From a virus: a stretch of DNA of 25,011 nucleotides. A model generated the notes under the pieces. The model saw only the letters and a list, made by a program, of their open reading frames with translations, searched no databases and had not been told where the DNA came from. Below are positions 3,660 to 18,246 of this stretch, piece by piece. The stretch is from the IMG/VR virus record IMGVR_UViG_3300023284_002989; one strand, given 5' to 3'. A program made the position numbers and the translations under genes. How positions within the stretch are numbered: the stretch's first letter is position 1; each line of letters starts with the position of its first letter.

Positions 3660-3896
3660 ATGTCTGAGACTGGTAAATTGGATTCTAATGTGGTGCGTGA
3701 CTTTCCTGTGGGAGCACAACTGCGGTACAAGAAGTCACGTTTGCGAGGGAGTAACGTCCACTGTAACGTTATGCGGCATTTCCTCGATCCAAACAAAAAG
3801 CACTACGTCGAATTGCACTGGAGCACCGGGGAAAAGAATAATTGGTCGGCAGGAGGGGTTGTCAGCGATCTGCAGACAGAGACGATGGAGTTTTGA
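3660..3896 (+). CDS. family-1 small protein (paralog A): ...FPVGAQL...HCNVMRHF...WSTGEKNNWSA...ETMEF
   Basis: ATG TCT GAG ACT GG start at 3660; clear paralog of 6031, 10486, 15421 and 17669. Confidence 0.6.
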   Translation: MSETGKLDSNVVRDFPVGAQLRYKKSRLRGSNVHCNVMRHFLDPNKKHYVELHWSTGEKNNWSAGGVVSDLQTETMEF

Positions 3897-4213
3897 TGTC
3901 AGACGCAACTGTCACGAGGTTGTCCGTTACAAAGGACCGCGCCAAAGCCCTTGGGCAGTGGGTAGAGGAATTGTCACACGACCCGGTGCGGACAGAACTG
4001 TTCAAGCTGGGGTTCACCCCCTTCCAGTTCCACTACACGGCGTTCGACGGGAGCATGTTGTCTGTGTCGCCCGATTATGCCGAAGAGCCGGTCTGGCATG
4101 TGTGCTGGGACGAAAATGAGGGGGATGGGGGGATATTTGTCCGAGTACACACCGACGAGTTGGTGGATTTCCTTGCGGTGCGCATCAAGGAAATGGAGTC
4201 GTCGAGGAAGTGA
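3896..4213 (+). CDS. hypothetical protein
   Basis: ATG at 3896 (TGATG overlap); 105 aa. Confidence 0.5.
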   Translation: MSDATVTRLSVTKDRAKALGQWVEELSHDPVRTELFKLGFTPFQFHYTAFDGSMLSVSPDYAEEPVWHVCWDENEGDGGIFVRVHTDELVDFLAVRIKEMESSRK

Positions 4214-4392
4214 AATGGAAGGTCCGCGTATGGTGCAACGACTGTGGTTTCGGGCAGGACCCCATGGGCTGCTTCGAGGGGGGTAGTGAGGTGCTGGACG
4301 AGGTGTTCGAGACTGTGGAGGTGGCAGAGGACGCCGGGAGCGACTACTGCAAGTGTTCCACGTGGGATTTCGAGCTTTTGGAGGAACAGTGA
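4210..4392 (+). CDS. small zinc-ribbon protein (CNDCG...CKCS)
   Basis: GTG at 4210 (GTGA overlap). Confidence 0.45.
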   Translation: MKWKVRVWCNDCGFGQDPMGCFEGGSEVLDEVFETVEVAEDAGSDYCKCSTWDFELLEEQ

Positions 4393-4667
4393 AGCACCTG
4401 TCAGGTTGCAAATGGTACGCTGCGGCAGCATGCCCTGTAGCGGTGTCGTGTGATGCGCACGGGCACGATGTCTGCCCGGAGTGCGATCCCTGCATCTGCA
4501 GTGGGAAAGCATTCCTCGTGCGTGTCTGCAACACGTGCAGCAAGGAAGTCTTGCCCGTTGAAGAATGTGACGGTCGGGTGTTCTACGAACACATTTCGCC
4601 TTCACCAAAGTGTTGGATCGAATTGGTCAATGACGACACCACGTTTGTTGAGACGATGGACCTGTGA
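4389..4667 (+). CDS. Cys-rich protein (CPECDPCIC...CNTC), ends ...VETMDL
   Basis: GTG at 4389 (GTGA overlap); junction-motif end. Confidence 0.45.
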   Translation: MKHLSGCKWYAAAACPVAVSCDAHGHDVCPECDPCICSGKAFLVRVCNTCSKEVLPVEECDGRVFYEHISPSPKCWIELVNDDTTFVETMDL

Positions 4668-4951
4668 GGGTCAAACCCATACCGATGAGGACGCAGGAGC
4701 AAGCTCAACAGGGCTGCTATCGCAAGAGCGGGTACGCCTCTCTGGAATCGGCAAGGGTTGCTGCATCGCACAAGAGTGGAACCAGTTACGCCTACCGGTG
4801 TGGGCTGTGTGGGGACTGGCATCTGACTTCACAGCGTCCCAGCAAGGGCAAGATCGTCAGATCCAGGAGGCGCAGGAAAAGTAAGCAAGACCACAGTCTG
4901 CGGCAGTCGCTTGGTGACTCTTTGCGTAGTTTGACTAGTGACACCAAGTGA
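4664..4951 (+). CDS. zinc-ribbon protein with basic tail (YRCGLCGDWH...RSRRRRKSK), possibly nucleic-acid binding
   Basis: GTG at 4664 (GTGA overlap); 95 aa. Confidence 0.45.
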   Translation: MRVKPIPMRTQEQAQQGCYRKSGYASLESARVAASHKSGTSYAYRCGLCGDWHLTSQRPSKGKIVRSRRRRKSKQDHSLRQSLGDSLRSLTSDTK

Positions 4952-4970
4952 CTGGCAGTAGAGTCCCATA

Positions 4971-5225
4971 ATGAAACGTCGATCCATTCTCGGTGCTGCC
5001 CTTGCGGCGATTGCGCTTCCATTCCAGAAGCTGTTCAGGCGTAAGCCACGTGACATTGTGTTTCCTGTCATTCGCAACGCAGATTACGGAATGTCGATGG
5101 ACGAGATCATGCGGGATGTGCATTTCGATATGCAGCACATCTACGATTGGAAAGCGCGCCAAACAACCGACAAGGACAAGCTGTTAGACGACAAAGATGC
5201 GGTGTGCACGGTCTTCAAGGTCTGA
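4971..5225 (+). CDS. small exported protein with Tat-like signal (MKRRSILGAALAAIALP)
   Basis: ATG at 4971; RR-x-x-L motif followed by an Ala-rich hydrophobic core. Confidence 0.5.
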   Translation: MKRRSILGAALAAIALPFQKLFRRKPRDIVFPVIRNADYGMSMDEIMRDVHFDMQHIYDWKARQTTDKDKLLDDKDAVCTVFKV

Positions 5226-5354
5226 TACAGTGGGGCCAATCCGGTGAGGTTCTGCCTCGATTGCCTTGCCGGGGTTGTCTACAGGGTGAGGTGACTCTGA
5301 GACGACACAGGTTGTGCTTCCAGACGTGGAAGGCAATCCTGTGATTACAATCCA

Positions 5355-16348: not shown

Positions 16349-16539
16349 AAGATGGCGTGATCGGCAAAGTTCCCTGCCCTATCTGTTCTGGAGTGGGTAA
16401 GGAATGCGGAATGTGTGGGGGATTGGGCAGCATGCACAAGATCAAGATCCCCCCTCAACCCGGGTGTCGCAAGTGTGAGAAAGGGCAGTGCACGATGCAC
16501 CCGACATGGGAGTACCAACAGATCGAACAAGAGGCGTGA
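16345..16539 (+). CDS. DnaJ-type cysteine-rich zinc-finger small protein (CPICSGVGKECGMCGGLGS...CRKCEKGQC)
   Basis: ATG at 16345 (ATGA overlap); two CxxCxGxG repeats; the C-terminus TWEYQQIEQEA recurs as a remnant at 14904-14939. Confidence 0.5.
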   Translation: MKDGVIGKVPCPICSGVGKECGMCGGLGSMHKIKIPPQPGCRKCEKGQCTMHPTWEYQQIEQEA

Positions 16540-16802
16540 TGGACGAGAAGAAACAAGCAGCGTTGAAGGAAAAGCCCAAGAAAGGTGACATTCTTGGTGT
16601 GCATATCAATGCTGTAGGCAGTGGACGCAAAAATGGCAAGACTGTTGTCATTGCATGGGGAGCGTACAAATCCGGGTTTGGTGAACTCACAATCATCACG
16701 GATGCAGAAGGCGATACAAAGATTCGGACAGAGACGATGGGCAAGGACTTTGCCAAGCGGGTGCTCAACAAGCTGATCGACGATGCGGAGGTCACGGAAT
16801 GA
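16539..16802 (+). CDS. hypothetical protein
   Basis: ATG at 16539 (TGATG overlap). Confidence 0.5.
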   Translation: MDEKKQAALKEKPKKGDILGVHINAVGSGRKNGKTVVIAWGAYKSGFGELTIITDAEGDTKIRTETMGKDFAKRVLNKLIDDAEVTE

Positions 16803-17104
16803 TCACTGCGGCGATGGTGGTGTACGCATTCATCGCGGGGTTTGCAATCAGAGCTATGAAGCCGTTTCCGGATGCATGGACAGATCCTGACTATGGCGAC
16901 GGGGACATAAGTGATGCGTCCCTGTCGATTTTCTTTGGGCTGGTGTGGCCAGTGACAGGACTGGGCTATTGTCTCTGGTGTTTGCACAAGAGTTGGAAGA
17001 ACAGCGTTGGTAAGTGGCATGCGGCTGAAAAGGAAAACGTACGACTCAAGAAGCGTGTCGAACAACTGGAGACGGGACTTTTGAAGGGTGAGGGAATCGA
17101 GTGA
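16799..17104 (+). CDS. membrane protein (2 TM) with C-terminal coiled coil
   Basis: ATG at 16799 (ATGA overlap). Confidence 0.5.
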   Translation: MITAAMVVYAFIAGFAIRAMKPFPDAWTDPDYGDGDISDASLSIFFGLVWPVTGLGYCLWCLHKSWKNSVGKWHAAEKENVRLKKRVEQLETGLLKGEGIE

Positions 17105-17313
17105 AGTACGGTAAGTTCAGCAAAGATCCGTGGAGGGCGATGCCACCGTTTGCAACGCAAGAGCAGGCGTTTCTGTATGCTCTGAAGAGCTTCAAGGAGA
17201 TCGGATACGGGCGCATGATGCAGCTCATTCAGGGGGAATGGGCACGCATGCTCATGGACAGTGGCATGGATGAAGAGACAGCACGTAGGGGTGCGAAAAT
17301 CGACGTGACCTGA
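17101..17313 (+). CDS. hypothetical protein
   Basis: GTG at 17101 (GTGA overlap). Confidence 0.45.
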   Translation: MKYGKFSKDPWRAMPPFATQEQAFLYALKSFKEIGYGRMMQLIQGEWARMLMDSGMDEETARRGAKIDVT

Positions 17314-17669
17314 TGAGTGACATTCACACATTCGTTGTGACGGCGAACAAGGATCGCACCGAGATTGGCATGGGTGGGCCTGATTTGCCGCAGATGTACA
17401 AGAGCGTTGATGACGAGGACATGGAGCTGATCGCCACATTCACTGCGGCTGAGAAGGATGCCAGGAGGATCTTCGACTCTCTGCGAGATACCCTGCGTGA
17501 TGAGATGTATCCAGCTGACGACGATCTTCTCCGCAAGTACGGACATCACGCCAAGGATTGCAAGATTGAAGCAAGCAGGTTTACCAACTCTTTCAAGGAC
17601 AAATACCACCAGCGCCCTCTGGGGCCAGAGTGCACCTGCGGTTGGGACAAGATCAAAGAGGCACTTTGA
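17313..17669 (+). CDS. hypothetical protein; C-terminus carries the KIEASRFTNSFKDKYH module
   Basis: ATG at 17313 (TGATG overlap). Confidence 0.5.
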   Translation: MSDIHTFVVTANKDRTEIGMGGPDLPQMYKSVDDEDMELIATFTAAEKDARRIFDSLRDTLRDEMYPADDDLLRKYGHHAKDCKIEASRFTNSFKDKYHQRPLGPECTCGWDKIKEAL

Positions 17670-18028
17670 TGGCATACACGACCTTTCCTGCGGATCGGGT
17701 CTCTGGGTTGGCAGAGACCATCAACGAGATCACAGACAGCATCAGCGGCATTGATGAGAAGATCGAAGCGAGCAAGTTCACCAATCCTTTCAAAGACAAA
17801 TATCATTGGGGTGTTTACGAGAACTGGCCTGTGGGGTCTGTTTGCCGCCTGTTGTGGGCAAGCAAATTGTCGGAAGTTGCCAGGAGATGTGAAATCTTCG
17901 AGCACCGTCTTCTCGTACACAGTGGGCACGTTGTCGGGATCAAATGGGAAGACAATGGACAGGCAGAATGGTGGACTGCTGCCAAGGTGCACGCTGTGCT
18001 GGCAACACCAGAGGTGATGGAACTGTGA
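17669..18028 (+). CDS. mosaic protein: KIEASKFTNPFKDKYH module followed by a family-1 domain (WPVGSVC...WEDNGQAEWWTA...EVMEL)
   Basis: ATG at 17669 (TGATG overlap). Confidence 0.5.
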   Translation: MAYTTFPADRVSGLAETINEITDSISGIDEKIEASKFTNPFKDKYHWGVYENWPVGSVCRLLWASKLSEVARRCEIFEHRLLVHSGHVVGIKWEDNGQAEWWTAAKVHAVLATPEVMEL

Positions 18029-18246
18029 TGCCGAAGCAGGAGGAATACCCAATTGGCAATGTGTGTCCGGTACTTGATCGTTGGGGTAGTCTGCGAACAC
18101 ATGTTCCTTTGCAGTGCTACGGAGATGTTTCGAAGAAGATGGAGCAACTGTCCAGCACGATCTCTGTGTGGATGAAGGTGTGCCAGAACTGTGGAGGTGT
18201 GTACGCCGAGACGTTTGACCAGGGGCGCGAAACAATGGATTTATAA
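18028..18246 (+). CDS. family-1-like divergent small protein (EEYPIGNVCPVL...ETMDL) with CQNCGG
   Basis: ATG at 18028 (TGATG overlap). Confidence 0.45.
   Translation: MPKQEEYPIGNVCPVLDRWGSLRTHVPLQCYGDVSKKMEQLSSTISVWMKVCQNCGGVYAETFDQGRETMDL

Follow-up and report, generated by a model that had tools for sequence, protein, structure and literature searches.

Small beta-barrels of the SH3/Tudor type are a classic binding scaffold, and short C-terminal peptides are employed for docking or loading, examples being the cargo-loading peptides of encapsulins and the acidic-hydrophobic C-terminal tip of SSB. Large phages carry long stretches of tiny unknown genes, with few handles for sorting them by function. 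Homologues of the major vault protein have already been described in phages and in bacteria (bioRxiv 10.1101/2023.11.10.566534; bioRxiv 10.1101/872010). Here, we analyzed the IMG/VR virus record IMGVR_UViG_3300023284_002989, one entire JGI metagenome contig of 25,011 bases (hereafter the window), and found a family of small paralogous proteins in it that has six solid members and possibly a seventh. The predicted fold of the family is an SH3/Tudor-like small beta-barrel, and the pentapeptide at its C terminus also closes unrelated genes of the same contig.

Identification of the family

All six open reading frames (ORFs) that an earlier note on this DNA had listed as copies are present, and their translations are as described there. 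Paralogy stands for five of them (m1 to m4 and the C-terminal half of m5; Table 1), which are homologous over their whole length, and falls for the sixth (m6), while a copy that had not been listed (m7) is added. Among m1 to m4, pairwise BLASTP gave E values from 3e-28 to 5e-9 across 64 to 77 residues. When a profile of these four members was searched against the 515 six-frame ORFs of the window, it recovered the C-terminal half of m5 (E 1.4e-6) and m7 (E 1e-5), and the next match was at E 1.3. Even once the PVG block and the final six residues had been taken out, the best matches outside the training set were still m5 (E 0.008) and m7 (E 0.02), the next being at E 0.9. Thus, the similarity is not confined to the YPVG, W.NG, and C-terminal motifs and extends into the core, clearly for m1 to m4 and weakly for m5 and m7. 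m7 is also joined to the family through the metagenomic protein P0009, which matches m7 at E 6e-8 and m1 at E 3e-13.

As for m6, it matched the seven-sequence profile at E 3.3 and with an hhalign probability of 1.9%, and BLASTP aligned only 26 N-terminal residues of it with m5. Its likeness to the family consists of an N-terminal EEYPIGNVC..W and the ETMDL tail only, and its single-sequence AlphaFold model has a predicted local distance difference test (pLDDT) score of 58, too low to be informative. m6 may be a degenerate tandem copy of m5. The latter carries an N-terminal extension (KIEASKFTNPFKDKYHW) that is in part a duplicate of the C-terminal region of 17313-17669, the gene just upstream (54% identity over 35 amino acids, E 5e-8) and is kept in the m5 orthologue P0010. 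For m2, a GTG start at 6031 was preferred to 5995, and its sequence GTGGGAACTAAGACTGG agrees with a recurrent start motif, ATGGGAACTGAGACTGA (repeat family D5).

The family was taken to be of unknown function in the earlier note, and indeed no Pfam, PHROG, NCBIfam, PADLOC, or PDB sequence entry matched it. There was no Pfam family at E <=1 apart from two spurious weak matches, the PDB sequence-profile search gave nothing at E <=10, tblastn with m2 gave no match in phage genomes, and an IMG/VR search with m1 alone returned nothing. A profile search of 5.8 billion proteins found the window's own proteins and P0006 only, the latter on a 793-bp ENA contig that is syntenic with window positions 3411-3934 at 87 to 92% nucleotide identity. 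An exhaustive HMMER search against 1.84 billion cluster representatives contributed two more, P0009 (77 amino acids, 631-bp contig) and P0010 (104 amino acids, 542-bp contig). Two kinds of candidates were rejected: two JGI metagenome loci from the m1 search are false positives, representing a glycosyltransferase that shares 'GAQLRYKK', and P0011 from the representative search, a 3402-residue NHL-repeat protein, is a repeat-inflated artefact.

These few relatives match individual copies. P0006 is the m1 orthologue (76% identity) and P0010 the m5 orthologue (53% identity), and in a nucleotide-translated comparison with the P0009-bearing contig (L004), m4 is the window copy that matches best. The duplication is therefore taken to be old and the copies to be individually retained, since diverged relatives hold orthologues of single copies. 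By the Nei-Gojobori method, the ratio of nonsynonymous to synonymous substitution rates (dN/dS) between m1 and P0006 is 0.41 overall, 0.61 in the loop described below, and 0.30 elsewhere (one pair, 78 codons); for the gene neighboring m1, it is 0.16. Diversifying selection, which the earlier note had raised, finds no support in this low-powered pair, as dN/dS is nowhere >1 and purifying selection is indicated. Judged by these substitution patterns, the family members are coding genes under a constraint that is relaxed in the loop.

Table 1. Features of the window, with the evidence for each
Feature	Coordinates	Strand	Ending and junction	Evidence or remark
m1, 78 aa	3660-3896	+	ETMEF; TGATG overlap with next gene	BLASTP to m2 E 3e-28
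m2, 77 aa	6031-6264	+	ETLEF; TGATG overlap	BLASTP
m3, 73 aa	10486-10707	+	ETMEL; next gene begins 1 nt past stop	profile, BLASTP
m4, 76 aa	15421-15651	+	DTLEF; TGATG overlap	profile, BLASTP
m5, 119 aa	17669-18028	+	EVMEL	profile E 1.4e-6; barrel domain ~residues 44-119 (17798-18028)
m6, claimed copy, 72 aa	18028-18246	+	ETMDL	membership unsupported (profile, hhalign, BLASTP)
m7, newly found, 79 aa	23743-23982	+	VMCDL (degenerate)	profile E 1e-5
Unrelated ORF	3-386	+	VETMEL; GTGA overlap with Lar-like gene	
Unrelated ORF, Cys rich	1648-1902	+	EVMEL; TAA stop	paralogue of 6264-6407
Unrelated ORF, Cys rich	4389-4667	+	VETMDL	
Unrelated ORF, 47 aa	6264-6407	+	EAMEF	directly 3' of m2
Unrelated ORF	8313-8618	+	EIMEL	
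Unrelated ORF	9283-9531	+	TETMEF; TGATG overlap	
Unrelated ORF	9531-9920	+	EVMEF; TGATG overlap	
Lar-like restriction-alleviation protein	383-685	+		Pfam E 5.6e-9; phrog_599
Major-vault-protein homologue, 899 aa	11240-13939	+		MVP_shoulder E 1.7e-27; Vault_3 E 3.5e-8
tRNA-Ile, unusual anticodon AAT	22723-22797	+		ARAGORN; Rfam tRNA 48.7 bits
Intergenic element, ~45 nt, five copies	3614-3652, 5388-5427, 10186-10224, 19183-19222, 22808-22846	+		

Predicted fold and variable loop

AlphaFold was run on the seven-sequence alignment and yielded a model with a pLDDT of 86.9 and a predicted template modeling score of 0.74, consisting of a short helix, five strands, and a one-turn helix ahead of the last strand, with residues 74-78 (the tail) as coil outside the predicted barrel. 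The predicted fold class is clear: a five-stranded, strongly bent antiparallel sheet of the ~60 to 75 residues expected for an SH3/Tudor-like small beta-barrel. Unlike the class, the nearest structural neighbor in such model comparisons is not clear. The best Foldseek matches were the CPH domain, MscS-type barrels, ribosomal KOW/SH3, Tudor, PetP, and PsaE, none at E <=0.001, and in BFVD many small uncharacterized phage barrels were matched at no significant E values.

Eight alignment positions are invariant (n = 8: P16, V17, G18, H40, H48, G57, W62, and A64). In the model, strands 2 and 3 would carry the two invariant His residues and strand 4 the Trp and Ala. The segment between beta1 and beta2 differs in length and sequence in every copy, and gaps and variation are concentrated there. 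We rejected a universal Zn site (Cys35-His40-His48), since the Cys is missing from two copies. The suggestion of a diversified binding module fits the data, given the predicted barrel scaffold and the copy-variable beta1-beta2 loop on a conserved core. An anti-defence or inhibitor role, also suggested at first, finds no direct support, with no PADLOC, Pfam, or PHROG matches. The sole hint of anti-defence is the Lar-like anti-restriction gene elsewhere in the window.

A C-terminal ending shared with unrelated genes

The earlier note had treated ETMEF as a family signature. We found that it is rather a contig-wide C-terminal or junction motif, which also closes at least seven unrelated genes. 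The pattern [ED]-x-[ML]-[ED]-[FL]-stop ends 13 plus-strand ORFs (of ~80 genes) and none in the other frames or on the other strand. Since it occurs internally only twice in 7538 residues, ~0.02 C-terminal cases would be expected by chance. Seven of the 13 tail-bearing ORFs are unrelated to the barrel family, and several of the seven are Cys rich. One of them, 9531-9920, has no homologue but itself among the 5.8 billion proteins. Two others, 1648-1902 and 6264-6407, are paralogues of each other (38% identity over 45 amino acids, E 2e-5), both Cys rich and tailed, and their downstream junctions differ. A short C-terminal motif common to unrelated co-encoded proteins is one mark of cargo-loading or docking peptides, and this is what the window presents, in 13 ORFs versus the ~0.02 expected.

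The claim that every copy closes a short gene block does not hold. None ends a block, and translation of the copies is coupled to that of the following gene: for every copy but m6, the downstream gene starts between 4 nt before the end of the stop codon and 1 nt after it. The tail codons include a GGAG ribosome-binding site and, in most cases, the TGATG stop/start overlap.

Weighing of the explanations

In the explanation that we prefer, tentatively and at somewhat less than even confidence, the family members would be stand-alone SH3/Tudor-like binding modules with a common docking core and a copy-specific loop, and the tail would serve as a coupling signal and plausibly also as a handle. The barrel core, with its P-V-G entry to strand 1, the His pair, the W-x-N-G turn, and the Trp and Ala, would form the common scaffold or docking face, and the beta1-beta2 loop would give each barrel its own target. 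During infection, the barrels would be produced alongside further accessory proteins, and the tail, besides coupling the next gene, would plausibly act as an exposed acidic-hydrophobic handle.

Several observations weigh against this explanation. No positive selection was detected, and the dN/dS values come from a single pair of 78 codons. The family is rare, with four contigs in all, so that conservation statistics are thin, and no annotated homologue in the Pfam, PHROG, NCBIfam, PADLOC, and PDB searches hints at its function. As for the tail, GGAG or GGAA is present in 11 of the 13 cases, and coupling to the following gene is seen for 12 of the 13 tail-bearing genes. Other stereotyped junctions occur on the same contig as well, with ATGGGAACTGAGAC ('MGTET') at four or five starts and TTGCACAAATGA at three consecutive ends; because these also recur, recurrent junction DNA is a habit of this genome. 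The tail could thus be purely a DNA-level junction element. This idea, which is a real possibility albeit a doubtful one, would leave the family members as orphan paralogues and ETMEF as what a DNA module of ~20 nt (GAGACGATGGAGTTCTGATG) happens to encode, with no shared protein-level handle. Such a cassette would supply the following gene with a ribosome-binding site and a stop/start overlap and would have been spread among neighboring genes by duplication or by recombination at microhomology. The tail DNA, GAG-ACG-ATG-GAG-TTC-TGA-TG, agrees with it in that GGAG lies 5 nt ahead of the ATG overlapping the stop, a distance found in six junctions. The junction 13-mer occurs 7 times versus 0.37 expected, and the tail junctions are the top families of a repeat finder (D1, D2, D4, and D12). 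The absence of the tail from the nearest vault-protein-encoding phage contig also favors a cassette. Read from its sequence, the tail DNA is a translational coupling junction. The exact junction 20-mer had no match in viral contigs and 13 matches in GTDB genomes versus ~17 estimated by chance, none of which encodes a family member.

A junction cassette by itself would not readily account for the way in which the tail varies. Its synonymous sites track codon usage, with GAG to GAA at 10:3 at position -5 and at 9:2, plus two Asp, at position -2, where GAG accounts for 58% on the contig, and E-to-D changes break GGAG yet retain the acidic charge. Position -3 stays Met or Leu though any G-ending codon would preserve GGAG, and neither Met/Leu at -3 nor Phe/Leu at -1 is needed for a ribosome-binding site. 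Furthermore, the tail persists where it is unable to serve a downstream start, namely, in 1648-1902, in m6 (TAA stop, uncoupled), and in P0010 (no overlap); in 1648-1902, its GGAG cannot be the ribosome-binding site of the next gene because the start 13 nt on has its own GGGAG. A ribosome-binding-like 4-mer is found in just 24 of the 51 other coupled junctions, where the end peptides are diverse. Taken together, the amino acids of the tail appear to be constrained as a peptide. One extension of this peptide reading, which we consider unlikely, is that E-x-M-E-F/L is an address or docking tag with which a huge phage that encodes a vault protein would send at least 13 otherwise unrelated small proteins, barrels included, to one shared receptor. 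The receptor might belong to the host (a hub protein), might be a compartment or shell of the phage, or might be the barrels themselves, which would then be the tail readers. If true, accessory proteins would be sorted by a phage 'zip-code' system that also serves as a translational coupling signal.

The vault homologue invites a more specific version, in which the pentapeptide loads the tailed proteins into a shell made by the protein of 11240-13939, in the manner of encapsulin cargo peptides. A full-length vault homologue does lie amid tail-bearing genes, and the tail is exposed, C-terminal, and common to unrelated small proteins. Proximity is the only link between the two, however, and the version is weakened because the nearest vault-encoding phage contig (47% identity) has neither the barrel family nor any recurrent C-terminal motif. 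Known eukaryotic vault cargo, moreover, uses a domain of ~160 residues and not a pentapeptide. We regard vault loading as very improbable. The predicted fold raises a different prospect, that the barrels are binders of host RNA polymerase, with Tudor-like domains of the CarD/CdnL/Mfd/UvrD type redirecting host transcription. This is quite unlikely: in the Pfam and PDB profile searches CarD_CdnL_TRCF (PF02559) did not match the family profile, and neither did DUF1653, a small phage and bacterial barrel. Chance similarity among noncoding ORFs might be suspected, as the genes are short and a simple gene caller dropped m4 and m6. For six copies, it is refuted by BLASTP E values down to 3e-28, orthologues on other contigs, the dN/dS of 0.41, and a confident AlphaFold model, and it has some room for 18028-18246 only.

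Genomic setting of the window

The window is probably an accessory or early-type region of an uncultivated, very large bacteriophage. This setting is supported by the Lar-like protein, the PHROG matches, the tRNA, and the relatives of the vault protein in huge-phage records. The G+C content is ~55%, and GC skew is positive along the whole window. A simple codon-usage gene caller tiled the plus strand with ~75 to 80 short genes, most of which overlap their neighbors via ATGA, GTGA, or TGATG. Megablast found no match to the window among GenBank phages. Several window proteins match PHROG families of unknown function (E down to 8.5e-24), and the Lar-like gene and the tail-bearing ORF 3-386 overlap by GTGA, which couples the two.

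For the vault homologue, the closest relatives (47% identity) sit in similar phage-like arrays of tiny unannotated genes. By tblastn, homologues at 34 to 35% identity were found in the huge-phage records LR756500, LR756501, and LR756503 (phage records of 462 to 735 kb). Bacterial vault homologues number in the thousands, and those with a named source come from metagenome-assembled genomes of Myxococcales and other Deltaproteobacteria.

The ~45-nt intergenic element occurs in five copies (Table 1) and is laid out as TTTTCTCTTGC (T-tract, TTGC), ~10 nt, TGCGG, 3 nt, and GTGGTAnnnT. It ends 7 to 12 nt before an ATG, a distance of 7 nt separating the copy at 3614-3652 from the m1 start codon. Counted from the copy of the element that precedes each of them, m1 is the first ORF, m2 and m3 are second ORFs, and m7 is the fifth. 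The element can be read as a promoter, with TTGCnn, an 18-nt spacer, and an extended -10, in which case transcripts would be leaderless or nearly so; it can also be read as a strong ribosome-binding site (GGAGGTGGT). Window scans showed no enrichment of consensus sigma-70 promoters or intrinsic terminators. At 19183-19222, the element precedes a 5-codon mini-ORF (MGLRL) at 19227, which is GTGA-coupled to the gene at 19241.

Other recurrent features were noticed along the window. The start motif ATGGGAACTGAGACTGA (MGTETD / METETE) is found at 2270, 2535, 3175, and 7896, also at 6031, 8140, and 16085, and twice it includes the TGA stop of the preceding gene, so that the two genes overlap by 11 nt. 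A TTG(C/T)ACAAATGA junction (L-H/Y-K-stop) closes three consecutive genes, at 21157, 21381, and 21641. Two plus-strand genes, 7561-7884 and 10235/10259-10489, form a second ('PVG') paralogue pair (33% identity over 61 amino acids, E 1e-11). The second of them lies directly 5' of m3 and probably starts at ATG 10235 (MGNGTGQHVLFEE, compare MATGQHVLFEEE); profile-profile comparison found no relationship between this pair and the barrel family (hhalign probability 0.2%). Five plus-strand proteins (starts at 4971, 5426/5432, 6410, 6761, and 10709) open with twin-arginine-type signal peptides (MKRRxVLKG...), for which Pfam TAT_signal gave E values of 3e-4 and 0.017, both under the gathering score. 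Their genes are interspersed among the barrel family and the tail-bearing genes, a density of exported proteins that is unusual for a phage accessory region. Just 5' of the tRNA-Ile, 22662-22720 resembles the 3' part of another tRNA and is called by no tool. In 22195-22661, the plus-strand coding signal is weak and the minus strand has an ORF at 22212-22544; there is a 230-nt gap just 5' of the tRNA.

Comparison with known systems

Two handles on the unknown genes of a large phage emerge from this locus. One is a new family of predicted small barrels that differ mainly in one loop, a candidate set of binders with different targets, and the other is a pentapeptide ending on one gene in six. Read as a peptide, this ending would mark out accessory proteins that are targeted together; as a coupling cassette only, it shows how arrays of tiny genes are joined up and expressed. 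For practical use, the gain stays modest as long as neither a related complete genome nor a host is known.

Compared with known SH3/Tudor/KOW barrels (the CarD/CdnL/Mfd domain, the C-terminal Tudor domain of UvrD/PcrA, CPH, and DUF1653), the family shows no sequence-level link by Pfam, NCBIfam, or PDB profiles, and only the phage family has the invariant His-His-Trp set and the E-x-M-E-F tail. It resembles lineage-specific paralogue expansions in large and jumbo phages in that diverged, unannotated copies with a narrow distribution are scattered through a same-strand array of tiny genes, but it differs from them because single copies have their own orthologues and because the pentapeptide end is common to unrelated neighbors. 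The tail, in turn, is like the encapsulin and SSB peptides in being short, exposed, acidic plus hydrophobic, and present on unrelated co-encoded proteins; unlike theirs, its codons also hold a ribosome-binding site and a stop/start overlap, so that a nucleic-acid explanation competes. It is also like the ATGA/TGATG coupling junctions, with GGAG 5 nt before a stop-overlapping ATG in a set of genes nearly all coupled, and it departs from plain junctions of this kind since the conserved unit is longer than needed, is kept as amino acids, and persists at three uncoupled ends. Thus, the family is new by sequence, and by its predicted fold and genomic behavior, it is another lineage-specific small-barrel expansion of a large phage, in which the unusual element is the pentapeptide ending common to unrelated genes.

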